From a virus (Duplodnaviria; Caudoviricetes), in IMG/VR virus record IMGVR_UViG_3300050343_000266, positions 8,333 through 72,332 of that record: DNA of 64,000 nucleotides. One strand, 5' to 3'. Shown here in pieces: positions 14,840-48,816 of the stretch. Below the pieces are notes generated by a model. It did no database searches, was not told the origin of the DNA, and saw only the letters and a list, made by a program, of their open reading frames with translations. The first letter of the stretch is position 1; the number at the start of each line of letters is the position of its first letter. The position numbers and the translations under genes are program-made.

Positions 14840-14892
14840 TCTCACAAAATAATAGTTAATAGCTAGAATAAAACTTGAGTCTAATACTTAAT

Positions 14893-15078
14893 ATGGCCTG
14901 TAAAAAATCAGAGTTGGTAGGAGCTATCAACTCGTTCGCAACTGCACGTGCTAGTGGTGACAATGCATTGCAGCAAATGTCTGCACAATTACTGCAAAAC
15001 ACAATCGAGACACTTGAGTTTGAGCCCGAAGAAGTTGCCGAAGACACTACTGAAGCAGAAGAAGATACTTCTAATTAG
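14893..15078 (+). CDS. small hypothetical protein
   Basis: MACKKSELVGAINSFATARASGD..., TAGAAT box at 14864. Confidence 0.6.
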   Translation: MACKKSELVGAINSFATARASGDNALQQMSAQLLQNTIETLEFEPEEVAEDTTEAEEDTSN

Positions 15079-15115
15079 TAACCGTTAAAATAGGACTATT
15101 ACAAGTCTCTGAATA

Positions 15116-17978
15116 ATGGCTAAGTTAGATTTTCCTGATGCTTCTTACTCTCCTTGGGTTGCTCCAAACAATGTAATCTATACATATATTGGAACATCAC
15201 CAAATGGGTATTGGGAAGCTAACACTGCCAATGCCTCAACAAACTTAACTGCTGTCTTTGTAGAACGCACTGGCAGCACAATGACTGGTACGTTGATATC
15301 TGGTCTCTCTGGTGCTGGTTATGGATATCAACTAAACCATGGGAATACAAACCTAGGAGGATTATATAAAGATACTGGATCTTCAAGATTAATATTAGGT
15401 GATGGTTCTACCACCAAAATTGACCTACAAGGTTCATCAGGTGCTGCATCGTTTTCTGGCGCAATTGGTACATCAGGACAGAACACCGTAAACGAAGCTA
15501 GCACATTAAAATTTAGTCAAGAAAGTGGCAATCTTTCTCAAATCAGAGCTTACGGTTCAAATGCTTCTACGTCTGGAAGTCTTGAGTTTAAAGTTGGTCC
15601 TAGTACCGGAGCACCTTCCACGCCGCTGACTTTGAACTAGCGGAGGAGCTGCCTCATTCGCGGGCGATATCCAAGCCACTAAACCAAGGAGCAGTACAGC
15701 AGGTTCGACTACGGGAGGGCTATCCATCAACCCTTCCGATTCAACCATCTATTACAACTTCAGAGTTGACGAAGTAGATAATGGTTTGCATATAGACACG
15801 ACGGCCGGTGCTAACCGGATCCTGTTTAGTAACGATGGAGACGCCACATTTGAGGGCAATGTTGCAGCTAGCAACCTCAACTGTAGTGGGAGTGTAGACG
15901 TGGGAAACCCTTCTACTAATGCTTACAAGCAAGGATTTTTAGCAGTTCCGACCCCAAGCAGCGGCGGGTCATATTTCCAAGTTTACGGTAAAAACGGAGA
16001 CGTTAATAAAGCTTTCTCTGTTTACAACGGAGACCTTGCCGTCCTAACTGCGAGTATTGACAGCACAGGGGCCGCCTCATTCGCGGGTCCAGCCACTGTA
16101 GTCAATGCATCCACGCCCACCGCTTATACAAGGCTTTACGATGGCCATATGCTTATCAGCAACACTACCGCATTCGGCCAAGCGTTTGGTTTGTATAACA
16201 CCACTACAAGTGCATACGAGATTGCCATGTTTATGGATGGTAGGGCCACATTTGCGGGTGCAGTTGAATCACAAAGTTACTTTAAAGTGACTAATACAGG
16301 TATTGCTTATTTGCAACCCAATACAGTAACTGCTTTTCAGGCATATGAATCATCAGGTCCGGCAACAATTAACCTGAACAATAATGGCTCGTCCTCATTT
16401 GCTGCAGACGCAAGCATCAACGGTCTGACTGTTGGCCATGGTCCGGGTAACGTTTCAAGCAATACAGTAGTCGGAGAAACTGCTCTTGTTTCAAGTTCTG
16501 GTGGATACAATACAGCAGTTGGTCATCAAGCTATGAGGAGCAATACTACTGGTGAAGACCATGTAAGCGTTGGTTGGCTAACTCTTTATCATAATACTAC
16601 CGGTCACTCCAACACAGCAATTGGCCGTACCGCATTGTATTCAAATACTACCGGTACCTCTAATGTCGCAATTGGTCGTGATGCACTTAGATTAAATACC
16701 ACTGGTTCCACTAATACTTCTATCGGACGAGAGTCTTCATATTCCAATACTACTGGTCAATATAATACTGTCTGCGGTTATCAAAGTTTATATAACAACA
16801 GTACTGGTTACAATAATTCGGCATTTGGATACAAAGCCCTTGCTAACAATTCAACTGGTACTCAAAATACAGCGGTTGGCTATGAGGCCATGAGATATAC
16901 CTCTACAGGCGGCAATAATGTAGCCATTGGCTTACACGCTATGTACGGAAATAGCACAGGGTACGAAAATGTTGCCGCAGGTGTTAATGCACTTATTAGC
17001 AATAGTACAGGGGCATGGAATACTGCATTGGGCTATAAAACTCTTGAAGCTAATACAACAGCAAATCATAATACTGCTGTTGGAAGAAATGCTCTTATTA
17101 GCAACACTACTGGTACGATAAATACTGCTGTTGGTTCTGGAGCAATGTTTGGAAATACTGTTGGTAATTACAATACTGGTATTGGCTATTCAGCCTTGAG
17201 TACTAGTAGTACAGGGGATAGAAATGTAGCCATAGGGTATCAGACTTTGTTCGCAAATACTTCTGGAGGATATGCCACAGCTGTGGGTATGTATGCCGGT
17301 TATTACAATACTACTGGCATGGGCAATGACGCTTACGGCTACAATGCTCTACATCACAACACTACTGGTCATTACAATACAGCACTCGGCTATCAAAGCC
17401 TGCATACAAATACTACTGGCCATCGCAACTCTGCTTTTGGACTAAATGCTCTTTATTATAATACAACTGGCACATATAATGTTGGGTTAGGACGTGAAGC
17501 TTTAAATGCTTGTACTACTGGTTCTGCAAATATTGGCATAGGTGGTACTAACAGTACTGGAACTTTTACTCCGCCATTTAACGTCGTAACAGAGAGTAAC
17601 CGATTAGTCTTAGGTCATACATCAATCACAAATGCCTATGTAAAAGTAGCTTGGACTGTTACATCTGACGAGCGCGATAAGATGAACTTTGCTCCAGTGC
17701 CTTATGGTCTGGACTTTGTTAATCAACTTAAGCCGACTGCATATCAATTTAAGGTAGATCGTGACACTGAAACACCTGATGGCGATGTACGTTATGGATT
17801 TAAAGCGCAAGATATCCTTGCATTAGAAGGCAACAACCCAGTCATTATTGACATTGAAGATCCAGATCATCTAAAATATAAAGGTGAACATCTCGTTCCT
17901 GTTTTAGTCAATGCAGTGCAAGAACTGACTACAATGGTTAAAGAACTTCAAGCAGAAATCAAAACACTTAAAGGTTAA
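15116..17978 (+). CDS. tail fibre/spike with beta-helix repeats and S74 chaperone; +1 frameshift at ~15635
   Basis: Removing one A in TTGAACTAGC joins ORF 15116 to the frame of ORF 15786 (LTLTSGGAASFAGD); many NTA(V/I)G..AL..NTTG repeats; TSDERDK...GFKAQD...LVPVLVNAVQEL. Confidence 0.8.
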
Positions 17979-26478: not shown

Positions 26479-28101
26479 ATGGGCAAGAAGAACAGAGGTG
26501 GAAATAAAGGCGGTGGGAGAAGGGGAGGCTCATCACCTAAGTCATCACCTAAGCCGTCACGGAGTCCATCACGGAGTCCATCACGCAATTCTTCACCAAG
26601 TCCTTCACGCAGTCCATCACGTAGTCCTTCACGGAGTCCTTCATCAAGTCCAGCACCAGCTAGGCAGCAAGCTAAAGCAGCAGCTCAAATGAGCGTTAAA
26701 GATCGTAGGGCAGGTGCAAAAGCTGCTGGTGTAAGCCTTAGGGATTTCAAGCAAGGTAAGACTGGAGCAAACGCTGTTGCTAGAAAAACTGCTCAAGTTA
26801 ATAAAAGAAACCCTCAAAGCTATGGAAGTGGTGGAAATAATAGTTTTAGTAACGCTCAATTGGCAGGTAATAGTAAAGGTGGTGGCTTAGTTAAAGCCAG
26901 ACGTAACGCAGCACAAAACGCTGGAATGTCTATGACAGACTATAAAGCTGGAGTAAAAGGTGGATCAATTGATAAGCATGGTAGAGCCAAAACAGGCGGT
27001 GGCATGACTAACCAAAGTGGTGGAAGTGCTTGGGACAATCTATATAAAAACTTTAACCAAGGCGAATGGGATGCAGAAGTAGCGGCTAACGAGAAGGAAT
27101 ACTATAAAAACAGCCCTAACAGTGGGATGAAAAGAGGCTGGCAGGGTGCACAGTTAGGTAAAAATGGATTCACGATGGATTCAAATAACGTAAATATGAT
27201 TCCAGCATTAGGGAAATACGGATTTAAAGCAGGGGATTTTGCGTTTGATCCTGATGGCTATGGAATTCACGATGAAAACAAAGATGGCAGAGAGGGCGCT
27301 GGAATTACAGGACGTATTTCATACGTCAGTAAAGGTGGCGGAGTACATATGGAACGTGATGGCTCTGGAAGCATTAATCCAAACTGGGATAAATACTCTA
27401 AATCCGGTTCAGCGAGGATGAGTTCAGAAGGATTGTATCAAGATAAATATAACGTCGGCTATCACGGTGCGGATGATAAAGGTGAGGATTATGCATCTAC
27501 TTCAAACCTAGGAGATATTGGTAGCTATTTTAAAGGCTTCAACCAAGGAGATAAATCATTTGGTGAAGCATACCACGGGTGGGCTGGTGGAAATCGCAAA
27601 GATGGGTATGCAGGTGATGTCCTAAAGTTTATTGATCAGGGACACATGAAGGTCAGCGATGATGACTACAACATGCTTGTTACTGATGCATCGAATTACG
27701 ACTGGGGCAATCGTAATGAAATTGCAGGTAGAGACGCTGGCAGCTCTACTTATGATTCACGATCAGGCGGTGAATCACAGAACAACATAACTGCTAATGA
27801 AAACTTCTATAAGAATAGAGATGCTGGTTATCATATGGCTGGCTCTATGGATCATGAACAAGCTGCTGCTAAGTATGGAAATACTTCTCAAAACTTTGGA
27901 AGCCAAGAATCAGACTTTGCTGCACCGACTCAAGCTGCTAGTAATTTTGAAATGCCTACTGTTCAACAAAGTATGGGACCCCAGTACCAAGGCTGGCAGG
28001 AACAGATGGGGAGCACATCCCAAAGTCCATATGCTACTAGAAGTAAGTCTAGTAAAATGAACTTTAACTTTAGCCCTTACAAATTCCAGCAAGGACAGTA
28101 G
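26479..28101 (+). CDS. large Gly/Asn/Ser-rich low-complexity protein with SPSR repeats (possible internal virion protein)
   Basis: 540-aa ORF, (SPSR)n N-terminus, TAGAAT box at 26449. Confidence 0.7.
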   Translation: MGKKNRGGNKGGGRRGGSSPKSSPKPSRSPSRSPSRNSSPSPSRSPSRSPSRSPSSSPAPARQQAKAAAQMSVKDRRAGAKAAGVSLRDFKQGKTGANAVARKTAQVNKRNPQSYGSGGNNSFSNAQLAGNSKGGGLVKARRNAAQNAGMSMTDYKAGVKGGSIDKHGRAKTGGGMTNQSGGSAWDNLYKNFNQGEWDAEVAANEKEYYKNSPNSGMKRGWQGAQLGKNGFTMDSNNVNMIPALGKYGFKAGDFAFDPDGYGIHDENKDGREGAGITGRISYVSKGGGVHMERDGSGSINPNWDKYSKSGSARMSSEGLYQDKYNVGYHGADDKGEDYASTSNLGDIGSYFKGFNQGDKSFGEAYHGWAGGNRKDGYAGDVLKFIDQGHMKVSDDDYNMLVTDASNYDWGNRNEIAGRDAGSSTYDSRSGGESQNNITANENFYKNRDAGYHMAGSMDHEQAAAKYGNTSQNFGSQESDFAAPTQAASNFEMPTVQQSMGPQYQGWQEQMGSTSQSPYATRSKSSKMNFNFSPYKFQQGQ

Positions 28102-28287
28102 TTATTTAGATTTACGTCCAAAGTCAAATTCAAATATAGCTCCTTGTAGAAATGGCTTAAGACAGAAAAGTTCTTCTTGATCTATTTCTCCTTGACCAGT
28201 CCATTTTTCTAATGTATATGACACAGCTGAATGGAGCGCACGAATAGCACGCTCATCAAATACACATGAGACTGATGGTTCATCCAT
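28102..28287 (-). CDS. small hypothetical protein
   Basis: 61-aa ORF downstream of the polymerase. Confidence 0.55.
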   Translation of the reverse strand: MDEPSVSCVFDERAIRALHSAVSYTLEKWTGQGEIDQEELFCLKPFLQGAIFEFDFGRKSK

Positions 28288-28301
28288 AGATATTATTATA
28301 T

Positions 28302-29603
28302 CTAGTGAGTAGCCGCCCAGTTCTCACCATGGTCAGCAGATGCAGCCATTGGTACGCGCAGGTTGTAGTACTTACCAGCTTCAGGCGCTGCTGCTTCTAA
28401 CAATCGTTTCATACGATCAACCTCTGCAGGTACTACAGACATCTGTACTTCATCATGTACGTAAGCACAGCGTGTGTAGTCACGGTCATAGGTAAGTCCC
28501 GCATCATCTAACATCTGCTGTCCAATTACCACCCATCGCTTGGAGATGATTGCTCCGGCAGACTGAAGTAAGAAGTTGGGACTACTGTGCTCAGCACGAC
28601 AGAATATAGGACGCCCATCAAGGCCCCTAAGACGACCAGTTGAGCGAACTTTAAGTTTAACTGCATCTACTAATGGCTCCAATCCAGGGATAGCGTCAAG
28701 GAATTTGCGGCGGAGTTCACCGCCAAGTGTTTTCTTCTGTGCATCTGACAGCTCAGGCTGCAGACTATGGCCAAGCTTTACGTCACCTGCACCATATATA
28801 AACGCATACGTGAGCGTCTTGACTTGTGTACGTGTACATCCAACACGGTCAGCATTCTGCTGGTGGATGTCACCGTTGACAACAACTTCAGCGAAGGAGC
28901 CCGAATCGAAAGCGGCTAGATAGTGCCCTAACAGGCGCAATTCAAGTCCTTCAAGGTCAGCTCCGACCATTACATGACCAGGGTGTGGAACAAATAGTTC
29001 ACGTGCCCACGGTGCACTTACCACCTGGCCCAAGTTGGGACCCCGATGCACATTTCTAGATGTTTGAGTAGCAAGAATGCAGCTGTGGTGGATACAGCTA
29101 TCCCCCTCAATAGAGTTAAACCAAGAGTTGGTTCCCTCGGATAGCTGACCAAGCCACTTCTGTAATGTCAACAAACGGATAAACATCTCACATTCGTCAT
29201 GCAGTTGCTGATTGCCAGTAGACAATGCAATGTCTCTTACTTCAGAGAGAGTTGCCTCATCAACTTTTGGCTTACCAGTCTCAGTAACTTTAGTGAAGCG
29301 TGCACCACGGAATGTTTGCAAAGCCCAGACAATATTTAGGCGTGACGTAGGGTTGAAGTCAGTCAAGCGCGTCATAGAAGCACCTGCTACATAGCCTTTC
29401 TTTTTATCAGCACGCTTTGGAGTAAATACCTTACCAGGTACGTACAGATAGATTGATTTGATTTTAATTGTTAGATCATCAAACTCTTGCTGCAGTTTTG
29501 TGCGTACACGTACAGCAGCCTCAGTATCAAATCTAAATCCACTTGCTTCCTGCTGAGCCATAAGCTCGGCCATCCGCATTTCAAGTGCAACGTAATCAGG
29601 CAT
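28302..29603 (-). CDS. polA: family A (T7-like) DNA polymerase, polymerase domain
   Basis: Motif A GADLEGLELR, motif B KTLTYAFIYGAG, motif C VHDEVQ; start placed at ATG 29603. Confidence 0.95.
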   Translation of the reverse strand: MPDYVALEMRMAELMAQQEASGFRFDTEAAVRVRTKLQQEFDDLTIKIKSIYLYVPGKVFTPKRADKKKGYVAGASMTRLTDFNPTSRLNIVWALQTFRGARFTKVTETGKPKVDEATLSEVRDIALSTGNQQLHDECEMFIRLLTLQKWLGQLSEGTNSWFNSIEGDSCIHHSCILATQTSRNVHRGPNLGQVVSAPWARELFVPHPGHVMVGADLEGLELRLLGHYLAAFDSGSFAEVVVNGDIHQQNADRVGCTRTQVKTLTYAFIYGAGDVKLGHSLQPELSDAQKKTLGGELRRKFLDAIPGLEPLVDAVKLKVRSTGRLRGLDGRPIFCRAEHSSPNFLLQSAGAIISKRWVVIGQQMLDDAGLTYDRDYTRCAYVHDEVQMSVVPAEVDRMKRLLEAAAPEAGKYYNLRVPMAASADHGENWAATH

Positions 29604-29835
29604 CTTTTTCATCATCCTTGTTGAATCCAAACGTAAGTTCTTTCTCTTTAGCCGCCCTGTCTGCTCGGTTCTTGTGTCCAAGCTTTGCTACAGACTCCAT
29701 AACCTTGAGACAGTCTTCTGTAGTAGAGCCATCAGGCATACGTGTGTGAACAATGTTAAAGAGCGGAAAGAAGATCTCCGCTGCCTCTGTCATTTCTTCA
29801 GAGTTGAGTGGATCTGATTTCTTAGGAATAGTCAT
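29596..29835 (-). CDS. 79-aa hypothetical protein lying between the two polymerase parts
   Basis: AGGAG SD; overlaps the exonuclease stop and the polymerase start. Confidence 0.65.
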   Translation of the reverse strand: MTIPKKSDPLNSEEMTEAAEIFFPLFNIVHTRMPDGSTTEDCLKVMESVAKLGHKNRADRAAKEKELTFGFNKDDEKDA

Positions 29836-30352
29836 TCATTCTCCTTTGCAATAGTTCGTATAGCTTTACTGTTACTTTTGTATCTTGGATGCAATAGTCA
29901 AGCATCTCAGGAGTGTAAGTAGACCAGTCATTACTGGTGTTCTTAGCAAAGTCTCCTTTGAAGCACTTTAATCTATAGCCCCATGCTTCTAGGCTATGTG
30001 AGCCGTAGAGCCTTTGTGGCATTCCAATAGGTCTTCTTTCAAAATCTCGCTCACTAATGTGAGGATAATACAAGCGAGACAGAGTAAGTGTGTCAAGGTA
30101 AGAACCTCTTGGTGCAAACTCTGGAAACTGTTCTTTAAGAAGTGGTACATCATATCCCAGAATATTGTGGCCAATAAGAACATCAGCTCGCTCAAGGGCT
30201 TTAACCCCTTGAATAACTGCACGTTCTGGTTTGTAGTCAAAGACTTCTGCTTCTTCTACATTAGCGATATCGCGAATCACAATACAGTGAATCGTAGAAC
30301 CGACACGTAGTAAGCCAGTACTTTCAATATCAAATAATAGTTCAGTTGTCAT
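29822..30352 (-). CDS. 3'-5' exonuclease domain of DNA polymerase A (separate ORF)
   Basis: FDIESTGL (ExoI), GHNILGYD (ExoII), HSLEAWGYRL, YCIQD (ExoIII). Confidence 0.92.
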   Translation of the reverse strand: MTTELLFDIESTGLLRVGSTIHCIVIRDIANVEEAEVFDYKPERAVIQGVKALERADVLIGHNILGYDVPLLKEQFPEFAPRGSYLDTLTLSRLYYPHISERDFERRPIGMPQRLYGSHSLEAWGYRLKCFKGDFAKNTSNDWSTYTPEMLDYCIQDTKVTVKLYELLQRRMNDYS

Positions 30353-30872
30353 GGATTGTTTCTACCGCTGGTTTATCTGTGGATGGATCTGGATATAATT
30401 TTTTATCAATTTTTCTGTTGGCATGTTTGTTAACCGAAAGCCTAGGATCCTCATCTTCAAAATGAGGTTCAATAGCAATGTCTAGTTCACGTGCCAGCCG
30501 TGCTGCTCTACGGAATTCATCCTTGTAGTATGGCTCCCAGTCAGACGCAAGTACAACAATCTTTCTAATGCCCATGATGTGCGCCTGAAAAACAGATGCA
30601 GAGAAGGGGTATCGCGTTGAGTAAATAGTTGCACCAGTCATAGGAGTTCCGCGCTTGCATGCACCAGCAATGGCATAACAAACAGGATCTATTTCTACGT
30701 GAGAGTCCGTTAGGAGTGAGCGTCCATCACCCATGATCTCTCGATCACGAACGATGACACACCCACCAGGACATGATGGATGTGTTGAGGCAGCGCCAAC
30801 AGCTTTAGCAATATCAATGAAATGTTGCTCCTTGTTTTTTATATAAGTGGGATCACCTTTGGGTGCTGTCAT
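30342..30872 (-). CDS. dCMP-deaminase-fold protein lacking Zn ligands
   Basis: FIDIAKAVGAAS...GCVIVRD...GATIYSTRYP....GIRKIV scaffold; HAE replaced by DPV and PCxxC by PFSAS. Confidence 0.75.
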   Translation of the reverse strand: MTAPKGDPTYIKNKEQHFIDIAKAVGAASTHPSCPGGCVIVRDREIMGDGRSLLTDSHVEIDPVCYAIAGACKRGTPMTGATIYSTRYPFSASVFQAHIMGIRKIVVLASDWEPYYKDEFRRAARLARELDIAIEPHFEDEDPRLSVNKHANRKIDKKLYPDPSTDKPAVETIHDN

Positions 30873-30930
30873 ATCACATTTAAGAGTCGATACTCTTATA
30901 TTAGGTAGTGAAACATATGATTGCGGATAC

Positions 30931-31251
30931 ATGGATTACATCAAATTTACTAAGGACATGGAAGAATATAATGATTGGAATCGTCTCGATGGTAAGCACT
31001 CGATCAATGATGCGTGGTTAGATTTTGGAACTACCGATCGTGTGCATAGTCCAAGTCATTACACAGCAGGTAAGCAGGAAGTGATTGATGTCATCGAAGA
31101 CACCATCAAGAATGCACCTGATGTAACGCGAGGGATGCTTCAAGGACAAGTAATGAAGTACCTTATGCGCCTATGGCTTAAGGACAATCCGCTTGAAGAT
31201 GCTAAGAAAGCACGTTGGTATCTTGATCGCCTGATTAGCAAGATGAGTTAA
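30931..31251 (+). CDS. DUF3310 (T7 gp1.7-like) protein
   Basis: DRVHSPSHY..G..EVID.I...KYLMR...K...EDAKKARWYL. Confidence 0.85.
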   Translation: MDYIKFTKDMEEYNDWNRLDGKHSINDAWLDFGTTDRVHSPSHYTAGKQEVIDVIEDTIKNAPDVTRGMLQGQVMKYLMRLWLKDNPLEDAKKARWYLDRLISKMS

Positions 31252-31661
31252 CACCTTACAAATTTAAATATTCCGTTCTCACAAGTAAGAGTCTCATGTT
31301 CTTGCTTGTGCTCTAGTAGTTTGTTGATGATATGAGCAGAAGCAATAGAAGTGTGCTTGAACTCAACTGTAATGCCTTGATCAAATCCTGGCAACTCTGG
31401 GTCATACCATTTAACAGGACGTAAATATTCCCATGGGTCTAAGCCCTGAGAAACCCATGCATTCAACTCTTCTAATCGTTGTGCAGTTTTAATGATATGA
31501 GCTTCGTGGGCAATTTCAATAGGCACAGACTTGAATTCGTTATTGCTTAGCAGTGCATGCTTCCACATCAATGAACCATCCTTGTGGATCAAACGACATG
31601 GATGAACACGACTACCAGATGGCATCATATAGAAAGCATCAGGAGATATATGCCTACTCAT
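31248..31661 (-). CDS. hypothetical protein, weakly peptidase-M15-like, Zn ligands absent
   Basis: HIIKTAQRLEELN...LRPVKWYDP...FDQGITVEF versus M15 NI..LA..LE.VR...I.ITSWYRP...SQH..G.AVDF. Confidence 0.45.
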   Translation of the reverse strand: MSRHISPDAFYMMPSGSRVHPCRLIHKDGSLMWKHALLSNNEFKSVPIEIAHEAHIIKTAQRLEELNAWVSQGLDPWEYLRPVKWYDPELPGFDQGITVEFKHTSIASAHIINKLLEHKQEHETLTCENGIFKFVRC

Positions 31662-32332
31662 TACACGTCTCCCCTATGCTCTTCGTAATGTTCTAGGTCT
31701 TTGAACCAGTTATCACCAGCATACTCATTGTATATAATCCTACCGATGTCACGGAAGGTGTTATGGAATAAAGTGACCTTATCAATATCACTAATGGTTG
31801 CATCCAAAGGTGGTCCATAGATTAATACATTCCAGGTTGAAGGGCAAACTGATTCAAAGCCCTTAGAAGTAGCTCGAAGTTGTTTAATGCGACGAAAAGG
31901 AATACAAACAGGATAATCCCATATAACCGGAGTCGCTCTGACGATTTCTGATGCACTAGTAAAAAATACAAAACTGTTTATATGGTTATTGCGATACTCG
32001 TTAATGGTTTTGTTTAACCACACTCGTGTATTACGCACTGCACCCTTAGGTGCTACCCATACATTCCCATGCCAATGTTCCTGGAGTGGGTTGGTCTCCA
32101 ACGATGGAACAGACGTTGCATCTACCAATACCTGCTGAACAGGATCAGATGTTGGGTCATAGTCAATAGAGCCCATGACTTGACGAGCTCTTTCGATTAA
32201 TTGAGGTGTTGGATAAAGAGGTAGTTTTAAACCACTCTCTTTAAGCTTAGCTTGTAAATTCTGCTGCGAGCGCTCGGAAGCCTTCTTGGCTCCCACCTGC
32301 TTCGACTGCAAATGTTCTTGTTCCAGCATCAC
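31661..32332 (-). CDS. phage N6-adenine methyltransferase-fold protein lacking the NPPY motif
   Basis: YPTPQLIERARQVMGSIDYDPTS...NPLQEHWHGNVWVAPKG versus canonical WYTP...ID(L)DPAS...DGL...W.G.VW.NPPY. Confidence 0.7.
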   Translation of the reverse strand: MMLEQEHLQSKQVGAKKASERSQQNLQAKLKESGLKLPLYPTPQLIERARQVMGSIDYDPTSDPVQQVLVDATSVPSLETNPLQEHWHGNVWVAPKGAVRNTRVWLNKTINEYRNNHINSFVFFTSASEIVRATPVIWDYPVCIPFRRIKQLRATSKGFESVCPSTWNVLIYGPPLDATISDIDKVTLFHNTFRDIGRIIYNEYAGDNWFKDLEHYEEHRGDV

Positions 32333-32669
32333 TGATCAAGGTAATTAGTACATTTTTTGACCAGTCATTCTCATCAATTTCTTCCAGCAGTTTACGCAGG
32401 AACTCAACTACATCGGTGTCTTCATTCGCTTCTGCAGCATTAATATCTGCTTCTAGTGAAGTGCCTGACATAAAAGTAGTAGAGTCGTTGCACAGATTAA
32501 TTACCAGTGACCCTGCACCTTCTGCAAGCACTCCATTTGAAGCGATATTAATTAAATCAGTAAGAATCAGTTCAGCAGTAGCAGCAAGAAACTTTTGCTC
32601 TTGCTCCTTCTCCTCTCCGAATTTGTCTGAATGAATTAATTGTTGAAGTAGATCTGTACGTCTAGACAT
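32247..32669 (-). CDS. hypothetical acidic protein
   Basis: 140-aa ORF in the operon. Confidence 0.6.
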   Translation of the reverse strand: MSRRTDLLQQLIHSDKFGEEKEQEQKFLAATAELILTDLINIASNGVLAEGAGSLVINLCNDSTTFMSGTSLEADINAAEANEDTDVVEFLRKLLEEIDENDWSKNVLITLISDAGTRTFAVEAGGSQEGFRALAAEFTS

Positions 32670-32701
32670 AATGTAATGACTCTTTCAATAGGATAAGTTA
32701 A

Positions 32702-33517
32702 TTAAAACTCTGATGTGGGATCTTCATCATTAGTTTCGTGATCTTCTGGTTGTTCAAACAAGCCTGGAGAATCTGGTTTCGTCTGACTGATGTGACGTCC
32801 GTTAAGCATATCTACCATGACAGCTTCAAAACGTTCATCAAACATTGAGTTTGGATTAAGGATAAGATCTTCCCGTTGATCCAGTCCTTCAGACATAGCA
32901 ATCTTCTCCTGCTCTTTCACTGCTTGCTGGATCATATACTCAGCAATTTGTTGCCTTAGTGTATGCAACTCACATGCGAGCTCGAAACTTTCTAGATAGC
33001 TATCGTGGTCTACAAATACCCCAATATTTTGAGGAATAAGATGGAAGGGATTACAACAATACTTGTTCCCACAAGTAGTTTTAACACCAGTGAATCCGAG
33101 ATCACCCCATGTAAACCACATCGCAACACGTTGAGGATGGTGCTGTGTCGATGATGAGATGCCATGCCTTCTCCATGCAAATTGAGGTTGCTTTGTTCGT
33201 TTGTTTATGCATCCGTTCCATTCCCAGCATTCATCTGGATCAGCCATGTCTACTAATGACCAGAACCTAAGAGCTTTTACTCGATTCTTTTTTAGTAACT
33301 TGGAAATATCAAAGGACATTCGCCCTTCACGTGCACCAGCTACGCAGCGAACACAAGCCTGGTGGCTGTCATAGCGCATGCTGTGGGAAGAGAATCTCCC
33401 AAGGGAATGTCCTGAGTAAAGGCAAAGCTCTCCCTCCTCAGCTGTATTAGACATCTGTTTGACGCGCCTGCCATAAGCATGACCGCCAACTTTTTTAGAA
33501 GGTTGAGCCTCAGCCAT
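32702..33517 (-). CDS. HNH (Zn-binding loop type) endonuclease-like protein, catalytic His absent
   Basis: RFWSLVD...ECWEWNG...HPQRVAM..TWG...VKTTCGNKYCCNPFHL versus canonical AHRVAW...V.H.CDN..CVNP.HL. Confidence 0.7.
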   Translation of the reverse strand: MAEAQPSKKVGGHAYGRRVKQMSNTAEEGELCLYSGHSLGRFSSHSMRYDSHQACVRCVAGAREGRMSFDISKLLKKNRVKALRFWSLVDMADPDECWEWNGCINKRTKQPQFAWRRHGISSSTQHHPQRVAMWFTWGDLGFTGVKTTCGNKYCCNPFHLIPQNIGVFVDHDSYLESFELACELHTLRQQIAEYMIQQAVKEQEKIAMSEGLDQREDLILNPNSMFDERFEAVMVDMLNGRHISQTKPDSPGLFEQPEDHETNDEDPTSEF

Positions 33518-33753
33518 TAGAAAGATCCCTCAGGTTTTACATATGTCCCACCATGAGGTGGGTATTGATCTTCAGTGTCAAGTGATTCGAGTTGATTATT
33601 AATCATGTACTCATAACGAGTGGAGTTCTCATATTTAATTCGAACTAGTTTTGAGCTTGGGGTGTAATACTCTGGTTGTCCAACAACCAAAGCATTCATC
33701 CCATTAGTTTGCACACGGACACGCAGCCCAATTTTGATATCGGAAGCAAGCAT
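33517..33753 (-). CDS. small SH3/KOW-like protein
   Basis: IKIGLRVRV...ALVVG...VRIKYE. Confidence 0.5.
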   Translation of the reverse strand: MLASDIKIGLRVRVQTNGMNALVVGQPEYYTPSSKLVRIKYENSTRYEYMINNQLESLDTEDQYPPHGGTYVKPEGSF

Positions 33754-33782
33754 ATTAATACCTTATATATTGTTTAGTTTAA

Positions 33783-36018
33783 TTAGAAGTCGTTCAAGAT
33801 ATGGGATTCATCTAAAGGATCATCTTTTGGACGTTGCCAAATACGTATCGATTTAGATTTACCATTAGCGTCTTTCCTGCTTGTTACCAAACGACGCCAC
33901 CCCATTGACTGAAGTACATCAGCAACACGGCGTCCTTCACGACGTGACTGGTTGCGAGGGTCAAGCTCCAGTGCATGTGTAAGCACATCGGCTGCAGTGA
34001 CCTCCTGCTTGATTGAAACGTAAGCTCCAATCTTGTCTAACCAAGGATCTGGGTCGCCAAATTCTTGGATGTATTCAGAGATCGCAGCAATCTCACCACT
34101 GTTGAATTCATATCCAACGCCGCTACGGTAAGCATGTACCGCCGCTGCCCATAGACTATCTCGTTCTTGCTCTAATTGCTTCCAAGGAATCTGAAATCCT
34201 CCTGCAATTTCTAGTGGAACGAATCGTCTATTGCCAGTACTGTCAACAAGGAATTGATTCCTATTGGTAGTGCCAATCATCACAAAGCGACGTGGCAACT
34301 TCGATGGGAGTGATGCATATGGATAACGAACCTCATCCACTCGACTTGTGATTAGGTTCTTGAAGTTCTCAATGTTCCTGACATTGAAGTAATTATCGAT
34401 CTCAGGTAAGCTCAAGCAACCATGCCATATGCAGGCGGTACTGCTCTTTCATCAGAGTCTCCAAGGGGATGGTGATCTCTGCGAACAGGGCATCAGGTAC
34501 CAAGTTTCTTGCAAACATGGACTTACCTACACCCTGAGCACCCACAAGAATGGGTAGCCAGGACATGGATGCACCTGGGTTGTAGGCACGAGCTACTGCA
34601 CCAATCATCATGCGTTGCATGGCAAGAGTTGCTAGCTGATGCTTGTTACCTAGGAAGACTTCTCCAATACGGTCCCAATCTTTATGCGGGATCGCATGTG
34701 CTGCACAACTATCAAGGTACCGAGTGATCGGGCAGTAACCGTTTTTACCTGCTGCGTACTGAATAGCTGACTTGATACGCGGCTCAGGAATGAAGACCCC
34801 GTACTCACAAGCAAGCTTGGTAGTCATGATGTCTAGGTCATTACCTTCGAGCTGAACAACTTTCCCGTTGGGGTCGTCATACTCAATGGCATTCGTAAGT
34901 CTGTTCTTACGTAGACCAGTCAAGATTGCTTTGACTTTATCTACGTCAGCTTCACGTTCTTTGGCAGCATCATCACTGCTTTTCTTTGGTCGTCCACGTT
35001 TGGCAACCTTTTTGGAATCCGGTAAGGGTTCCGGTTCAAACTGCATAGTTTCTCCTTTTGCTTGTCGTATAACCTCTTCAAAACTGACCAAAGGATCAGT
35101 CTCTGTATAACCAACTGCTCCACCAGATGCACCAAAGCGCACATCACGGGGAAGCTTACTAGTCCAATTAGGATCTTGCTTTTTTGCAAGCGAATACAGT
35201 TTAGTATGCCCAGCATATTTGCCGAGACCTTTCCACTTAAACGCACGAATGTTTTCTTCTTTGTGACCGTGGTGGCCACGAATGACCCAGTCAACCCAGT
35301 CATCAAACAGAACGCCACCTACACCAGCACAAGCTGCCATGACAGGCACGTAGTAAGACTCGTACTCATCGTCGTCAGACGGACGTAGGAACTCTCGAAG
35401 GAGCCACTGACATCGCCTTACGTCAATATCCTCACAGTCTGAATGTACAAACTCTGTAGGTTCGTCGTAATCAATGTCAGTCAGTAGGAATTCAGGTACC
35501 AATGCACCATCATTAAGACGATGACGGGTAGCTGTATTGCCATACCAAAGGCGCTCAGGCTTTTGTCCACAGTTATCTTTGAGATCATCGAGCTGCAGAT
35601 CGGCAAGCAAACGGTTAACGATTAACCAGTAAGCACCACGATGCTGTCTAGAAGATTCAAGATCAATTTCTAATGCAAAGATCGCACGGAATCTGTGCTC
35701 TTCTTCTGTGTGACTTGCAGAAGTATAAGTAGCAAGGCACCACTCTTTAGCAGTTGTGGTTTCCCAAAACTTATCAAGAGTAGTGTCGCCATCAAAGTCA
35801 ATGACAATGATGTTGCTACCAGCTGCATTATCTGCACGCCTGTGTCGATCAATAAAATGAGTGGCGCACCAGCCGTAGCCATGCTCCACCCATCCAAGTA
35901 GCCAGTCAATGCTGACTAATACATTTGACCAACCACGAGCAACCAGTTGTGGGTTGCTTTTATTTTGGCAGTTCTTATTGACTGCTATCTTCAGTATCTT
36001 TTGCACTCTCCATCTCAT
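33783..36018 (-). CDS. primase-helicase (PriCT-2 + VapE/VirE-like ATPase), +1 frameshift at ~34408
   Basis: IVIDFDG, YTSASH, RFRAIF primase motifs; Walker A GAQGVGKS; Walker B split as WLLEL|PEID; GTTNR..FL.D.TGNRRF. Confidence 0.88.
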
Positions 36019-36727
36019 GAAATTGTTGGGCTCTTTTCAAAAACTTTGCTTCGAATCTGTCCAGCTGATCGGTATCTATAAAGATACCTTGAGAGGTTTC
36101 TGGAGTAGAGACAATAATCAAAGCTACATCACATTTATATCCTGTTCGTTCAGCTAACGCGAGGCGGTATGCCGCCATTTGCTGAGCGCACTTTTGATAC
36201 TTCCTAAATCCACCAAAACCTAAGCGGTCTCCTTTCTCAGGAAACACAGCAGAGTAAGGAGCGTTACTGGTTTTAAAGTCAGCAATTATCTTTACCCCAC
36301 CTATCTCTCCGATCAAGTCAGGACAACCAGCGTACAAATGTTCTGTTGACCAGACATATGCAACTTCGCGGTCATCGCTTCTGAGGTGATTCCAGTCAGG
36401 ACGCAAAGGACGTTCCGACCAATGAAGTGTATCAAACCAATCTAGGTATGGTGTGATTCCATTCCAGAAGTCTTGATATTCTTCAGAAACTCCGGGATCT
36501 AATCCACGGAGATAGTTTTCACAACCAAGGTGAATAGCAGAGCCACGAGTTGAGGCTGCTTCTAATGCACCAGGGTTGTTCTTCTGCCAGTTACGTAAGC
36601 CAGCCTTAGCCTTTTCAGTTTCTGTAGCAGACAGGACTGTTGTAACCGAAGGCATATACAGACCTGAACAAAGGTACTTTCTATAACCGCTCGGAGTTTG
36701 TATCCGATACGGCTTATCAGTAGTCAC
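35975..36727 (-). CDS. PD-(D/E)XK exonuclease (Cas4/MGME1-like)
   Basis: PSVTTVL, RGSAIH, YAGCPDLI, IADFKTS, QMAAY. Confidence 0.85.
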   Translation of the reverse strand: MTTDKPYRIQTPSGYRKYLCSGLYMPSVTTVLSATETEKAKAGLRNWQKNNPGALEAASTRGSAIHLGCENYLRGLDPGVSEEYQDFWNGITPYLDWFDTLHWSERPLRPDWNHLRSDDREVAYVWSTEHLYAGCPDLIGEIGGVKIIADFKTSNAPYSAVFPEKGDRLGFGGFRKYQKCAQQMAAYRLALAERTGYKCDVALIIVSTPETSQGIFIDTDQLDRFEAKFLKRAQQFHEMESAKDTEDSSQ

Positions 36728-37094
36728 CCTCTTCTACCTGCTCTTGAAAGTTCTGCGAATACGTTGCGCCTGTATCTGTAACAGTGGTTTGCTCCTGAAA
36801 CATGGCATACAGTTGCCCCACTGCGTTACCTACGGCTTCTGTTACCTGTCCAATTGCTTCAACACGCTGAGTCATAAACGAAACTTCGTTCCTCATATCT
36901 GCAACTTCTTGACGCAATGCAATGGTGTGATCCATCAGGGAAGGCACTTTTGGAAGGGGCCTTGTTGCTAGTGGTCGTTGCGGAGCATCGGGTACAACGG
37001 GTTCAGCAGGAACGGTTGCTTGTGCTCCTGCGATGATCTGTGCAATACGCGCCTGCATTTCAGGTGGCAAGTTATCCATATTTGAATTAGTCAT
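36717..37094 (-). CDS. hypothetical coiled-coil protein
   Basis: 125-aa ORF coupled to neighbours. Confidence 0.6.
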   Translation of the reverse strand: MTNSNMDNLPPEMQARIAQIIAGAQATVPAEPVVPDAPQRPLATRPLPKVPSLMDHTIALRQEVADMRNEVSFMTQRVEAIGQVTEAVGNAVGQLYAMFQEQTTVTDTGATYSQNFQEQVEEGDY

Positions 37095-37831
37095 TAGAAT
37101 TCAGTTTCCTCTTCTACTTTTTTAGTTGCAGTTGTTGTCCCTACATGGGCTCCACGTTTGTCGGTTCCACCAGCAGGAAGACCTTTCTCATCGACTTGTT
37201 TGCCATCGAAAGGATCCTTGCCTTCAAAGAAATTAGGAAGCCAGATGGTGTCCTTCTCTTTGTCCCAAGTTGACTTAATTTTATCTGGCACCTTACGGAC
37301 CTTCGGTAGGATGCTGTATGTAGTTTCCAGACCGGCTCCCTTGCGGCTAATCTTAATTGAAAAATTAGCAAGTCCGTCTTCTGTCCAAGTGTAGTCTTCA
37401 ATTTCTTGAAGAATTTCTGTGAGCTGTTCTCTAAGTGATTTTTGTTCAATGAAAAGTACCTCTAAACGACCGCGAGCTGCACTAGTGCCAACCCAAGCGA
37501 GGAATCGCCGGGGCTTGACATAAGTTCCATCGATTTTTGGTCGATCGGGCTTGGACCAATCGGTCTCTCGTGCGATGTCTTCGGGCTGCCCAGGATGAGT
37601 GCGAGTAACAACGTAGCCGTTGAAACGCAAATCACCAGTCTTAGCATCACGGCATTCGGATGCGTACTGCCAACCCACGATTGCGTGTCCCGTTTCGTAG
37701 CAGCCGAGTAGCCGGAACTCTTCTGACTCGCCATCTTTAAGACTGCTTGGTTTCCAGTAAGGTTGTGGTTCTCTTGTTTCAATTTTATCTTTTGTCTCCA
37801 GCATTTCTGGAGGTAGGACTTGTAGCGCCAT
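37094..37831 (-). CDS. probable ssDNA-binding/annealing protein
   Basis: YWKPSSLKDGES.EFRLLG...IKISRKGAGLETTYSILP; acidic EEETEF tail; next to the exonuclease. Confidence 0.55.
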   Translation of the reverse strand: MALQVLPPEMLETKDKIETREPQPYWKPSSLKDGESEEFRLLGCYETGHAIVGWQYASECRDAKTGDLRFNGYVVTRTHPGQPEDIARETDWSKPDRPKIDGTYVKPRRFLAWVGTSAARGRLEVLFIEQKSLREQLTEILQEIEDYTWTEDGLANFSIKISRKGAGLETTYSILPKVRKVPDKIKSTWDKEKDTIWLPNFFEGKDPFDGKQVDEKGLPAGGTDKRGAHVGTTTATKKVEEETEF

Positions 37832-43785: not shown

Positions 43786-45248
43786 TTAGGCAGGATTACC
43801 ATCAGTGAAATAGAAACCACCGATACAGTTCTCGTTATTTGATATTACTAAATGTCGTGCATGTTGATAACATCTCATACCCATATGATAGGAAATCATG
43901 ACGGGATCACCGACAATTACGGTGTCTAATCGGTCGCACATAATTAAACGAACTGCAGGTGGTTTGCGTTTGTACTGAATCTCTGCGTCATAGGCAAGGT
44001 GGGAGTCTTCGTTGAGTGTGTTTGGGTTGAAAACAGTTCGAACTCTGGGAGCAGTCACAGGGATTGCTTCCATTTCAGACATTAGTTTTTTCATTCGTCG
44101 GCAAAGGTTATATCAATTAGTTGGGATTCTTCGAAGAGCAGCTCTTGTACAGCACCGCTCTCGATCTCTTCTTCGCTGAAATGCCAGTCTGCAAGGTTCT
44201 CTAAGTAGTAGTTAACCTCGTCATGGATATTGTTATCCAATGCACAGCGCAGGAATGTACGGAAATGATCTCGTTGTACTTCAGTCATGATCTTCCAAAA
44301 GGGTCAGGTGTCCATTGAAATGAAATATTTGAAGCATCTTCTATAAATGCTTCTTCGAGTTCCTCATATCCCTTGTCAGAAAGGTCATCCTGTAAATGAG
44401 GTGAGTTGTCTATGTAGACAGGAATGAGTTGTTCTATTTGACGCATGAGTGAGTTTGCAAGAAATGATCGAAACCGTGTTTGTTCTTGTACTGTAAGTTT
44501 CATTCGTTTGTAATTAGACGGTATGTTGTACAACGCTTGCTGTTAGCCACACGTTGCTTGAGCAAAGCCAATTCTTTTTTGGCAAGTTCTTCATCCTCAA
44601 AGGATTCTTTGGTGACCCAGACTTGTTGTTGAATGTGAATCATGAGTTAGGCAGGTGCAGTTTTAGCGGAGGTAGATACTTTTTCTCAGCAAGGTACACT
44701 TCGACTTCCTGGCGCTGATCGCTAGTGAGATAACCAAACATGATGTTGAGTATCTGGTTGAGATAGTGCGTAGGAAATTCTGGTGAGTCTTGGGCCAGTG
44801 CTGCGTGGCACAGGAGTACGACATCGAGCACGTCATAGTCGGGCAGTTTGTCAACGTTCATTTGTAAATTTGATGTATTCGGTGGGATTTTCTGCAAAGT
44901 AATCAAGAAGTTCAAGTAGCCGACATGCTGTTATGTGCTCCCCATCAATAGATAATTGGAGGAGCACACTGTTGAGGTAACGTCTAGCAGCCAGCAGTTC
45001 GGTAACTGCTCGTGATGTCATTCGTCTTCTTCTTCTTCCTCTTCTTTCTTTTGTAGCTGCAATTGAGTTTGAGCATATTCAGAAACACAGCCATCGACAA
45101 TCCATTCAAGAGTCTCAGCTTCGAGTTGTTCTAATGCCATTGCACAGACAGAACATCGTATAGCCATTGTCATTGTTGGATAGTTATCGATGAGATAAGC
45201 GTCAATATCAAAGATGTATTCACGCTCGTAGTCAGTTTTTACAGGCAT
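43786..45248 (-). CDS. run of small hypothetical genes (43786-44094, 44091-44288, 44285-44533, 44640-44915, 45018-45248)
   Basis: Co-oriented acidic ORFs, several with ATGA overlaps. Confidence 0.55.
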
Positions 45249-45895
45249 TAGAAGTTCTCCTCTTCTGTGTCAGCAGGCAATGCACGTAAGTCATCTAGGA
45301 CAGTGACTTCAGTAGGAACACCGGATATCTCTGCAGACAGGATTTGTACTGCATCTGTAACGCTTCTGATGATGCCTTCCTTGTCTCTGTCAGAACGCAA
45401 GTCGCGAAGCTGCTCATACATATGATTGTCAGAAACACGCTCGCCATCTAGATAGATGTTGGCGAAGGAAGGACGCTTGCCTTGATCACCACGCTTGGAC
45501 CAGAAGGTGAATGGTGTGTTGAAGTCATACATTCCTGACCCCATGATTCCCATCAGAGCTGTGACGACAGCTTGTGACCACATGGTCTCGACACCAGAAG
45601 TGAAGCAAAGCTTGATACCATTAGGACCACGCAGCTTGAGATTTAGCTTTGATGCTTTGAATGTACCAATGTCATGAACAATTTCAATGCCATAGCAGAC
45701 AACATTTTTGAATGATTGTAGTGGCTTGCCGTTTGCTTGATTAAGAAGAGCAATGGGCTTGGAGTCTTTGTAGAAGAAAAATACAGCGTCAGATTCTTTC
45801 ATTACGCCAACTCCAATAAGTAGGTCGTAATCAACTGGCGCAGATAGACCACCAGTAAACTCAGAAATAATTGAAGCAGGATTAGCGATTGTCAT
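45248..45895 (-). CDS. hypothetical protein, possibly ssDNA-binding
   Basis: 215 aa, beta-rich, acidic EEENF tail; preceded by the hairpin module at 45938. Confidence 0.6.
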   Translation of the reverse strand: MTIANPASIISEFTGGLSAPVDYDLLIGVGVMKESDAVFFFYKDSKPIALLNQANGKPLQSFKNVVCYGIEIVHDIGTFKASKLNLKLRGPNGIKLCFTSGVETMWSQAVVTALMGIMGSGMYDFNTPFTFWSKRGDQGKRPSFANIYLDGERVSDNHMYEQLRDLRSDRDKEGIIRSVTDAVQILSAEISGVPTEVTVLDDLRALPADTEEENF

Positions 45896-46381: not shown

Positions 46382-47211
46382 TTATTTTTTCAGGTTGTAA
46401 TCAATTGATTTTCTTCTGCGAGCAAACTTCCCATCTTTCATTAATCCTTGGTACACATCAGCTTTAGAGGCGGCTCTTTCAGTTCCATAATAATTAACTG
46501 ACGAACTTGGAGAAGGTGACGGAGATGGATTAGGGAAAGGAGATGGAGATGGAGATGGACTAGGAGAAGGCGATGGAGAAGGATTAGGAGAAGGCATTGG
46601 TATATCACTACTGCTAGGCATAGGAATTATTGGCATAGCAATAGTTGGCATACTCTTAGGAGGGGTAATACGCGGCATAGGCATACGCCCAGGCATAGGC
46701 ATACGCCCAGGCATAGGCATCTTCATAGGCATATTCATACCTGGCATCTTCATAGGCATATTCATGCCTGGCATATTCATAGGCATATTCATAGGCATAT
46801 TCATAGGCATATTCATGGCATATTCATAGGCATATTCATAGGCATTCATAGGCATATCCATACCCGGCATCTTCATAGGCATAAACATAGGCATGAACAT
46901 TACCTTAGGCATAGGCATATTCATACCTGGCATCTTCATAGGCATGAACATTACCTTAGGCATAGGCATAGGCATAGGCATAGGCATGCGCATAGGCATA
47001 GGCATGCGCATTACCACAGGCATAGGCTTGGGTTGAGGCTTTGGTGCAGGCTGAGGTGAAGGTGAGGTGAAGGTGAAGGTGAAGGTGAAGGTGAAGGTCT
47101 AGGTGAAGGACGTGGTGAAGGTCTAGGCGATGGCCGTGGTGAAGGTTTAGGTTGAGGTCTAGGCATAGGCATGCTCATACCCATACCCATCATCATGTTT
47201 CTTCTACCCAT
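46382..47211 (-). CDS. extremely Met/Pro-rich repetitive protein (frameshifted in this sequence)
   Basis: ORFs 47011-47211 and 46382-47023 join across a 1-nt loss in a CCTTCA array; tandem CCTATG and ATGAATATGCCT units. Confidence 0.65.
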
Positions 47212-47678: not shown

Positions 47679-48029
47679 TTAACGACGACGACGAGTAGCC
47701 CGACGAGTAGCGGCAGCAGCTTGACGTGTTGACCTACGAGCTGCACGCCGTTGCGCTGCAGCAGCTTGGCCACCAGCTGTGTTGCGTGTTTTTACACGGC
47801 TAGAGTTTTTGCCGTAAGTAGTACCGCCGCGCATCATTGATTTAACTGCGCCACCAGTTGCAGTTTTGCGTGTTGCTGATTTGACTGCGCCACCTGTTGT
47901 ACGACGACTAGTTCGAACTGAACCATCAGCATTAGTACGCTTGCGTTGAATCGTACCGTCTTTACGCTTGCGTTCTTGAATGGTTGCTCCTCGTTTAGTA
48001 CGTCGCGTACTAGTAGCTCGTTTCATCAT
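47679..48029 (-). CDS. Arg/Thr/Ala-rich protamine/histone-tail-like basic protein
   Basis: 116 aa, nearly no acidic or aromatic residues; TGGAVKS twice; ends RRATRRRR. Confidence 0.7.
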   Translation of the reverse strand: MMKRATSTRRTKRGATIQERKRKDGTIQRKRTNADGSVRTSRRTTGGAVKSATRKTATGGAVKSMMRGGTTYGKNSSRVKTRNTAGGQAAAAQRRAARRSTRQAAAATRRATRRRR

Positions 48030-48815: not shown

Positions 48816-48816
48816 T

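Follow-up and report, generated by a model that had tools for sequence, protein, structure and literature searches.

Pseudoenzymes are well studied in eukaryotes and hardly in phages. METTL14, a member of the MT-A70 family, has an adenine-N6 methyltransferase fold with a degenerate motif IV, and it pairs with its active paralogue METTL3 as an obligatory non-catalytic partner and scaffold. In the vertebrate protein CDADC1, an inactive N-terminal domain that resembles DCTD is described as having an architectural role (PMC12088426). Here we describe a set of genes in 64,000 nucleotides of viral DNA, called the window throughout (positions 8,333 to 72,332 of IMG/VR record IMGVR_UViG_3300050343_000266, which has 72,332 bases and an estimated completeness of 91%). 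The set lies between a primase-helicase gene and a split DNA polymerase, and encodes a deaminase-like protein, a methyltransferase-like (MTase-like) protein, an HNH-like protein, a protein with a predicted M15-like fold (m15) and two small partner proteins, o140 and o78 (Table 1). To judge from alignments, the deaminase-like, MTase-like and HNH-like proteins are without the residues that their families need for catalysis, and it is very unlikely that they carry out the ancestral reactions; the word pseudoenzyme is justified for these three. We give about an even chance to the explanation that the cluster consists of conserved ex-enzymes of a cyanophage replication module, acting as binding or scaffold proteins for replication and for the supply of deoxynucleoside triphosphates (dNTPs). 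Three, perhaps four, pseudoenzymes would then be core replication-module genes of a globally recurrent cyanophage, constrained like its polymerase.

The phage, an uncultured marine cyanophage with psbA and a T7-type DNA polymerase that is split, resembles the uncultured S-EIV1/BAC21E04-like group. Flores-Uribe et al. describe a lineage with a split T7-like polymerase, psbA, a genome of ~80-86 kb and Synechococcus phage S-EIV1 as nearest isolate (bioRxiv 10.1101/325100). The window has in common with that lineage, as far as its description goes, the split T7-like polymerase, psbA, a genome of ~80 kb and the nearest isolate S-EIV1, a comparison of traits and not of trees. The words methyltransferase, deaminase and endonuclease each occur 0 times in the main text of that paper, supplements aside. 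Among the matches listed in the literature on pseudoenzymes and bacteriophages, there was no account of a phage pseudoenzyme cluster.

The deaminase-like protein starts at 30872, as in the initial annotation of this DNA, and this is the conserved start among its relatives. Pfam dCMP_cyt_deam_1 (PF00383) matches it with E 3e-4 and 21.1 bits, below the 25-bit cut-off, with 99 of the 102 profile positions covered. A profile of 19 family members searched against the PDB found RibD deaminase domains best (E 2.4e-5), and also TadA and deoxycytidylate (dCMP) deaminases; in the ESM Atlas, the nearest clusters are viral ones with PF00383. Homologues come from a sister lineage of 13 viral loci, on contigs up to 85 kb, which were fetched via P0138, the nearest outgroup of the MTase-like protein. 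They are 26-29% identical to the window protein, pass Pfam at 62-69 bits, and carry the motifs TVHAE[MA]N, CSxCA and G[YF]NG. When the window family is aligned with these intact relatives, His-Ala-Glu is absent, a gap of four columns in this family taking up part of the HAE stretch. PFSAS aligns with the zinc-cysteine motif CSxCA, and the surrounding RYPFSAS is invariant or nearly so in the 19 sequences. GDGRS and an 11-residue gap stand at the site of G(Y/W)N(A/G), the allosteric motif of dCMP deaminases (PMC12088426). The metal ligands and the catalytic Glu are all lost.

These comparisons confirm, at the level of profiles and alignments, that the protein is a homologue of phage dCMP deaminases in which the catalytic motifs are lost. 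The initial annotation had called a dCMP deaminase without HAE and PCxxC, and both motifs are indeed absent, together with the allosteric motif. It had also suggested that such a protein could be a nucleotide sensor, and the loss of G(Y/W)N(A/G) argues against that role. Since the deaminase is intact in the sister lineage, the function was lost on the branch leading to the window lineage, and the two lineages offer a natural before-and-after pair for an enzyme becoming a non-catalytic part. A six-frame search of the whole record gave no other PF00383 match at E <= 0.01, tblastn of the protein against cultured phages gave no match, and hhalign found no relation between its family and the deoxycytidine triphosphate (dCTP) deaminase of S-EIV1. 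No phage protein of this kind stood among the literature matches on catalytically inactive deoxycytidylate deaminase. By analogy with the inactive N-terminal domain of CDADC1, the deaminase derivative would be an architectural subunit; both are DCTD-like modules without catalysis and with a proposed architectural role. The resemblance has limits. The CDADC1 domain, as it is described, keeps HAG, PCxxC and zinc, whereas in the phage protein His, Glu, the two Cys and the allosteric motif are all gone, and this protein stands alone, unlike the CDADC1 domain.

The MTase-like protein keeps motif I in the form ID-x-DP-x-S and has [AS]PKG, throughout the lineage, where NPPY is expected. It has no match in Pfam or PHROG, the PF05869 cut-off of 28.1 bits is reached by 0 of 17 family members, and a sequence profile search of the PDB with the family gave no match. 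By tblastn it is 21-31% identical to Dam-type methylases of Vibrio and Alteromonas phages, which pass Pfam PF05869. Searched with a profile, 1.84 billion representatives yielded 2829 relatives at E <= 0.001, and PF05869 members were reached at E 1e-11 to 1e-17. Distant relatives have NPPY or NPPG at the motif-IV position, and the three that were tested with Pfam Dam all match it, two above the cut-off and P0160 below (26.2 vs 28.1 bits). The nearest 15 full-length representatives are without motif IV, and none of the seven tested carries any Pfam family.

A tree was computed without the motif columns, and 25 of 26 motif-less Dam-like sequences fall in one group (SH-aLRT 99). The motif-IV Asn is found in 100% of 59 canonical relatives and there is no consensus at the position in the motif-less clade, where D56, D58, P59 and S61 of motif I are kept at 88-100%. 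The clade holds at least 15 clusters at 50% identity. As placed by this tree, it is old, diverse and unnamed, and not a fresh loss of the motif in the window lineage. Automatic annotation would miss such proteins or miscall them as methylases. As a separate observation, many Dam-like relatives (P0151-P0269) have N-P-P-G-G for N-P-P-Y/F, so that the aromatic residue is gone; they lie apart from the NPPY group on the tree and may be another under-described subfamily.

The AlphaFold model of the MTase-like protein (pLDDT 88, pTM 0.79) has a class-I methyltransferase fold. Its structural matches include CAPAM (Z 9.4), M.TaqI (8.8), EcoDam, METTL16 and CamA (8.2 each) and T4 Dam (7.8); the best 50 matches listed are all Rossmann-type methyltransferases or close kin, and Foldseek agrees weakly (best E 3.5e-3). 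An adenine MTase in which NPPY has become APKG, as first proposed from the sequence, is what the results describe: the predicted fold is class-I and [AS]PKG aligns at the NPPY of the relatives. The nearest named family is phage Dam, PF05869. Motif I, W86-x-G88, R147 and the class-I MTase fold are common to both, and the differences are the replacement of [ND]PP[YFW] by [AS]PKG, the missing Pfam match and the position in a separate clade. Unlike METTL14, the protein has no active Dam-type paralogue in its record (no PF05869 match at E <= 1), and its constant neighbour is the unrelated 140-amino-acid protein o140.

The o140 and MTase-like genes are neighbours, with o140 immediately upstream, in all 80 loci of the window lineage and in 13 of 13 sister-lineage loci. 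The two open reading frames (ORFs) overlap by ~83 nt (32247-32332) in different frames, and both are conserved. The overlap suggests translational coupling, and the double coding contributes to the low ratio of nonsynonymous to synonymous change (dN/dS) there. In the proposed mechanism, the MTase-like protein would have kept the cofactor-side motif I and lost the adenine pocket, and it would work with o140 as an obligatory upstream partner, perhaps as a subunit that binds S-adenosylmethionine (SAM) or DNA.

Four PHROG HNH families match the HNH-like protein (E 2.6e-9 to 1.8e-6), and tblastn finds HNH endonucleases of actinophages, haloviruses and S-EIV1 that carry Pfam HNH_3 and/or zf-His_Me_endon. 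All 24 family members are without a Pfam match, and the sister-lineage protein L101 has Pfam matches below threshold (E 0.0016 and 0.0098). When the family was aligned with HNH_3 and zf-His_Me proteins, the canonical H-x-C-D-N...C-[VC]-N-P-x-H-L was found as T-T-C-G-N-K-Y-C-C-N-P-F-H-L. The reading of VKTTCGN as a replacement of V.H.CDN is borne out, with T-T-C-G-N at the place of H-x-C-D-N and the zinc cysteines kept. T148 at the position of the catalytic His, two before the first zinc Cys, is invariant in the 24 sequences, and so are C149, C154, C155, N156, P157 and H159 of the zinc loop, which align with the canonical proteins. The S-EIV1 homologue reads R-T-C-N-N at the catalytic site, and in the sister lineage A, M, N or His occupies the catalytic position, with the residues around it fixed. 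Such free variation at this position would be expected of a family that can do without nuclease chemistry. The MTase-like homologue of S-EIV1 is, like its HNH-like homologue, without the catalytic motif. A profile search of the PDB with the HNH-like family gave a coiled-coil match to plant NRC2a alone, which was judged spurious.

Compared with PF13392 and PF05551 endonucleases, the HNH-like protein has the same overall order, with the FW-x-V...ECW-x-W hairpin at the N-terminus and the C-x4-C-C-N-P-x-H-L zinc loop. It differs in that the catalytic His is Thr, the next Asp is Gly and the distal Asn is displaced, and it has two additions: an N-terminal Cys/His cluster (C32, H37, C55 and C58, conserved in both lineages) and an acidic C-terminal tail. 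The o78 gene is always directly upstream of the HNH-like gene, and it adjoins the HNH-like gene in 7 sister-lineage loci. The recurrence of both the o140/MTase-like and the o78/HNH-like adjacency in the sister lineage marks these pairs as stable units.

In phage T7, gp4 docks to the polymerase by an acidic tail. The acidic tail of T7 gp2.5 likewise binds a basic patch on the polymerase (PMC12339929). In the window lineage, tails with a terminal Phe or Tyr are found in 69 of 75 orthologues of the HNH-like protein, where the tail is acidic, and in 60 of 60 helicases; o78 ends in ...PEGxF in 56 of 64 orthologues, and a gp32-like ORF, similar to single-stranded DNA-binding (SSB) proteins, ends in ...EEETEF. 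The window polymerase keeps part of the T7 gp5 basic stretch in alignment. Under the proposed explanation, the HNH-like protein would have kept a zinc-stabilised DNA-binding scaffold, and its acidic, Phe-ended tail would dock to the polymerase in the T7 way, a docking tail that it may share with the helicase and the SSB-like protein. A two-chain prediction of the polymerase subunit with the HNH-like protein scored 0.02 against a mark of 0.32, which speaks neither for nor against binding. Acidic tails with a terminal aromatic residue were also seen among ORFs at 36717-37831 and 45248-45895 (minus strand), as the ...EEETEF of the gp32-like ORF, ...VEEGDY and ...TEEENF. Such tails may point to a larger group of proteins in this phage that dock to the polymerase or the replisome.

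Conservation of the cluster was evaluated in related viral contigs, of which the best 80 of 169 were fetched and compared. They are not near-clonal, with identities down to 45-78%. Within the reach of each contig, all 80 loci share one gene order: primase-helicase, o78, HNH-like, o140, MTase-like, m15, DUF3310 (on the opposite strand), deaminase-like, exonuclease subunit, (o79), polymerase subunit. The four ORFs of the initial annotation are all present in the window on the minus strand, intact and without stops, as are, on the same strand, the two small ORFs that it names; the counts of intact copies among the relatives are given in Table 1. Values of dN/dS are median pairwise Nei-Gojobori estimates from pairs with dS of 0.1-1.5 only (for the MTase-like gene, 578 of 3240 pairs), most pairs being synonymously saturated, and 19 of 46 deaminase-like and 16 of 41 DUF3310 sequences were dropped from the sets. 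The four genes have dN/dS of 0.066-0.117, with the MTase-like gene the most constrained of the region, and the substituted motifs are themselves conserved across the lineage. This outcome, well below 1 and with fixed synteny in the 80 contigs, agrees with the earlier view of the cluster as exaptation and not decay. Strong constraint on the ex-enzyme genes points to binding or structural roles for their products.

The gene set recurs in the sister lineage and is thus older than the window lineage. Profile searches of the ORFs found there the primase-helicase, the deaminase in 7 loci, o78 in 7, the HNH-like protein in 10, and a weak m15-like ORF in 2 loci (E 1e-4). Several studies dated 2019 to 2025 have near-identical DNA in their seawater and viral metagenomes, and m15, MTase-like, o140, HNH-like and o78 are each covered in part by seawater RNA-library contigs, which come from three studies. 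Two homologous-protein searches (476 and 935 matches, of which the best 120 are listed) brought up close relatives, with no Pfam family and no name beyond 'hypothetical', and when all members of the MTase-like, HNH-like and m15 families were compared with Pfam, the matches were few, scattered and due to chance.

The weak single-sequence matches, with Pfam below threshold or absent, and the frameshift of the HNH-like gene in one related contig (L027) speak for decaying pseudogenes, for homing-endonuclease relics or for chance resemblance, with nothing functional encoded. We find this hardly credible, and decay of the cluster genes is excluded: the ORFs are intact in 64-80 relatives each, with dN/dS of 0.07-0.12 and fixed synteny, the models of the MTase-like protein and m15 are both confident, the MTase-like protein has its 2829 relatives, and the module recurs in the sister lineage.

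The same data bear on the idea that the dead enzymes are decoys for counter-defence or host takeover, which bind host factors or small molecules, for example by poisoning the oligomers of host deaminases or methylases, by sequestering SAM or by shielding the DNA from restriction. The idea has the general plausibility that an inactive subunit can still bind a ligand or a partner, and the abundance of the lineage, which recurs in many seawater metagenomes over studies and years, is compatible with an arms race. Anti-defence genes typically show turnover and diversifying selection. The genes of this cluster are core genes, with synteny fixed in two deep lineages and dN/dS low and uniform, and they lie between helicase and polymerase in the replication module, not in an early or accessory region. 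The deaminase derivative moreover is without the allosteric nucleotide site. On this evidence we consider decoys quite unlikely.

Table 1. Features of the replication region and psbA in the window, with intact copies among the related loci and median dN/dS
Feature	Coordinates	Strand	Basis	Intact ORFs	dN/dS
psbA (D1 protein)	48867-49949	-	window
Primase / VapE-type helicase	33783..36018	-	Pfam VapE 4.3e-28; PHROG helicase/primase matches		0.097 (primase)
o78, 78 aa, no known family	33517..33753	-	no Pfam/PHROG match		0.156
HNH-like: putative His-Me/HNH_3-type protein, 271 aa	32702..33517	-	PHROG, tblastn, alignment	64/78; 13 cut by contig ends, 1 frameshifted	0.091
o140, acidic, 140 aa, no known family	32247..32669	-	no significant Pfam/PHROG match	79/80; 1 cut by contig end	0.160
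MTase-like: predicted Dam-type (PF05869-related) methyltransferase-fold protein, 222 aa	31661..32329	-		80/80	0.066
m15: predicted Hedgehog/DD-peptidase (LAS, M15-like) fold, 137 aa	31248..31661	-	model	80/80	0.117
DUF3310 protein	30847..31251	+	Pfam DUF3310 E 1.3e-16; PHROG 'nucleotide kinase' families
Deaminase-like: putative zinc-less derivative of phage dCMP deaminase, 176 aa	30342..30872	-	Pfam, PDB profile, Atlas neighbours	66/78; 12 cut by contig ends	0.084
Split T7-type DNA polymerase	28302..30352	-	PHROG DNA polymerase and exonuclease-subunit matches; T7 gp5 alignment
Exonuclease subunit of split polymerase	29822-30352	-			0.075
o79, small conserved ORF between the two subunits	29596-29835			detected in 36/80 loci	0.24
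Polymerase subunit of split polymerase	28302-29681	-			0.101

The fourth protein of the cluster, m15, has no sequence match in Pfam, PHROG or the PDB, and the ESM Atlas gave nothing usable; hhalign of its family against S-EIV1 AHV82253 gave a probability of 1.2%. A model was predicted from 150 sequences (pLDDT 86.4, pTM 0.80). The VIA search with this model found first the Streptomyces Zn DD-peptidase 1lbu (Z 8.1, root-mean-square deviation 6.6 over 107 residues), then ShhN/Hedgehog (6.7, 6.2 and 6.1), VldE, DacB (5.3), LysB4 (5.2) and Ply500 (5.1), and lower down MepA, VanXY, VanY, the T5 endolysin and VanX. Eight of the nine chains at Z >= 5 are DD-peptidase, Hedgehog or M15-type by their entry titles, and Foldseek gave Hedgehog N-terminal domains as best matches (prob 0.97, E 0.09, TM 0.44). 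We take 1lbu and the Hedgehog, DacB, LysB4, Ply500 and Van entries to share the LAS/M15 fold. The model therefore supports a Hedgehog/DD-peptidase fold for m15, and with middling Z values this is support and not proof. The predicted fold is that of LAS/M15 proteins and of the Sonic hedgehog N-domain; unlike M15 peptidases, m15 has no sequence similarity to them, looks cytoplasmic, and is encoded in a replication and not a lysis module.

The initial annotation had called m15 a dead M15-like peptidase, in which the SxH...G.A.D motif had become GFDQGITVE. The fold gains support from the match to 1lbu, and the deadness is not borne out. The GFDQGITVE stretch, which was compared with SxHxxGxAxD, is variable, with G96 alone conserved, and the canonical zinc triad, H-x(3-6)-D with a distal His, is not recognisable in the sequence. 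At the same time six His, Asp and Glu residues are invariant (H20, D28, E53, H55, H103 and E123), a C-terminal Cys is present in 79 of 80 copies, and C22, H35, H118 and H122 are nearly invariant.

Several of these results weigh against a cluster of binding and scaffold proteins. With its invariant residues, m15 may well be a metalloenzyme, to judge from their conservation in a predicted LAS fold. Residues P134, P173, R197 and W208 are invariant in the motif-less MTase clade and specific to it, and a new activity could depend on them. For the deaminase-like and HNH-like proteins of the window, the fold is read from sequence. The RNA-library contigs may derive from DNA, and they are compatible with expression and no proof of it. 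The acidic Phe-ended tail is absent from the sister-lineage helicase and from most sister-lineage HNH-like proteins, so it cannot explain the whole module and is a lineage-specific lead only.

The first two of these points lead to another explanation, in which the proteins are neo-enzymes that have kept their folds and rebuilt their active sites for new chemistry. An example would be a SAM-dependent transfer of a group other than methyl, or a modification of DNA or nucleotides, by the MTase-like/o140 pair with the LAS-fold and DUF3310 proteins. The motif-less clade keeps motif I beside its own invariants, the MTase-like gene has the lowest dN/dS of the region (0.066), and in S-EIV1 its homologue stands beside a dCTP deaminase gene and a DUF3310 gene, all of which would fit. 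However, no replacement residue is fixed at the motif-IV position in the motif-less clade, neither a metal ligand nor the catalytic Glu survives in the deaminase derivative, the residue at the HNH catalytic position changes freely from lineage to lineage, and no modification enzyme partner was recognised nearby by Pfam and PHROG family matches. New chemistry has to be taken seriously as a rival, above all where the LAS-fold protein and the MTase-like/o140 pair are concerned; for the cluster as a whole we regard it as doubtful.

Returning to conserved ex-enzymes with binding or scaffold roles, a bolder form of the proposal is that the six genes make one dedicated machine, almost wholly of ex-enzyme origin and composed of the o78/HNH-like and o140/MTase-like pairs, the zinc-less deaminase and the LAS-fold protein. 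The machine might couple dNTP supply to the split T7-type replisome, or the MTase-like/o140 pair might be a new SAM-using enzyme acting on phage DNA. We think it unlikely that this is correct. If it were, the motif-IV-less Dam-like clade would be a new and widespread family with a non-methylating function. The cluster proteins are small and tractable for biochemistry. For annotation, the labels deaminase, methylase, HNH nuclease and peptidase are best avoided for these genes.

Other enzymes of the window match their own families strongly. Ribonucleotide reductase (RNR), ThyX, MazG, an exonuclease and a 2-oxoglutarate-Fe(II) (2OG-Fe(II)) oxygenase do so at E 1e-26 to 1e-99, so the degeneracy is not a genome-wide property. 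The initial annotation had listed a fifth degenerate HNH at 1423-1809, and its degeneracy is not confirmed: the ORF 1423-1863 (minus strand) passes Pfam HNH_3 (29.9 vs 24.8 bits), carries NUMOD4 and keeps the first His, and the protein ends soon after its NL motif. By these domain matches it looks like an ordinary homing-endonuclease-type HNH_3/NUMOD4 gene.

The DUF3310 gene, absent from the initial annotation of the cluster, lies on the opposite strand within the minus-strand cluster, in the same place and orientation in 80 of 80 related loci. Its likely true start is the ATG at 30931, and it overlaps the convergent m15 gene by 4 nt. The S-EIV1 copy is 55% identical and lies near the S-EIV1 MTase-like gene. 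In S-EIV1 (KJ410740.1), at 14220-17726, the motif-less MTase-like gene adjoins an annotated dCTP deaminase gene, with the DUF3310 gene close by, and a neighbourhood of MTase-like, cytosine-deaminase and DUF3310 genes is thus recurring. The fold of the S-EIV1 dCTP deaminase differs from that of the dCMP deaminase of the window. S-EIV1 is the only cultured phage found by tblastn to share the unusual genes; megablast of the region against cultured phages gave no match, and neither did tblastn of a 597-amino-acid structural ORF. Cyanophage Syn5 has a polymerase with 44% identity to that of the window.

The primase-helicase is split in this record into ORFs of 538 and 210 amino acids by a 1-nt insertion near 34402-34415. 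In related phages it is one ORF of ~750 amino acids, reading through ...AWLLELPEIDNYF..., and an RNA-library contig is one base shorter at 34408 than the record. An assembly error in this record, or a defective variant, is the probable cause of the split. A scan of 28000-36200 found 8 promoter-like sites vs 16.8 expected and 9 terminator-like sites vs 5.3 expected, and gave no usable promoter or terminator signal for that interval.

Two further observations were made outside the replication module, both on the minus strand. Directly after psbA (48405-49949) there is a Cys-rich ORF of 136 amino acids with a CVDHDH...N signature, which looks HNH- or endonuclease VII-like. At 46382-47023 and 47679-48029 are a 213-amino-acid ORF that consists mostly of PM/MP repeats followed by SP repeats, and a 116-amino-acid ORF that is very rich in Arg, Thr and Ala.

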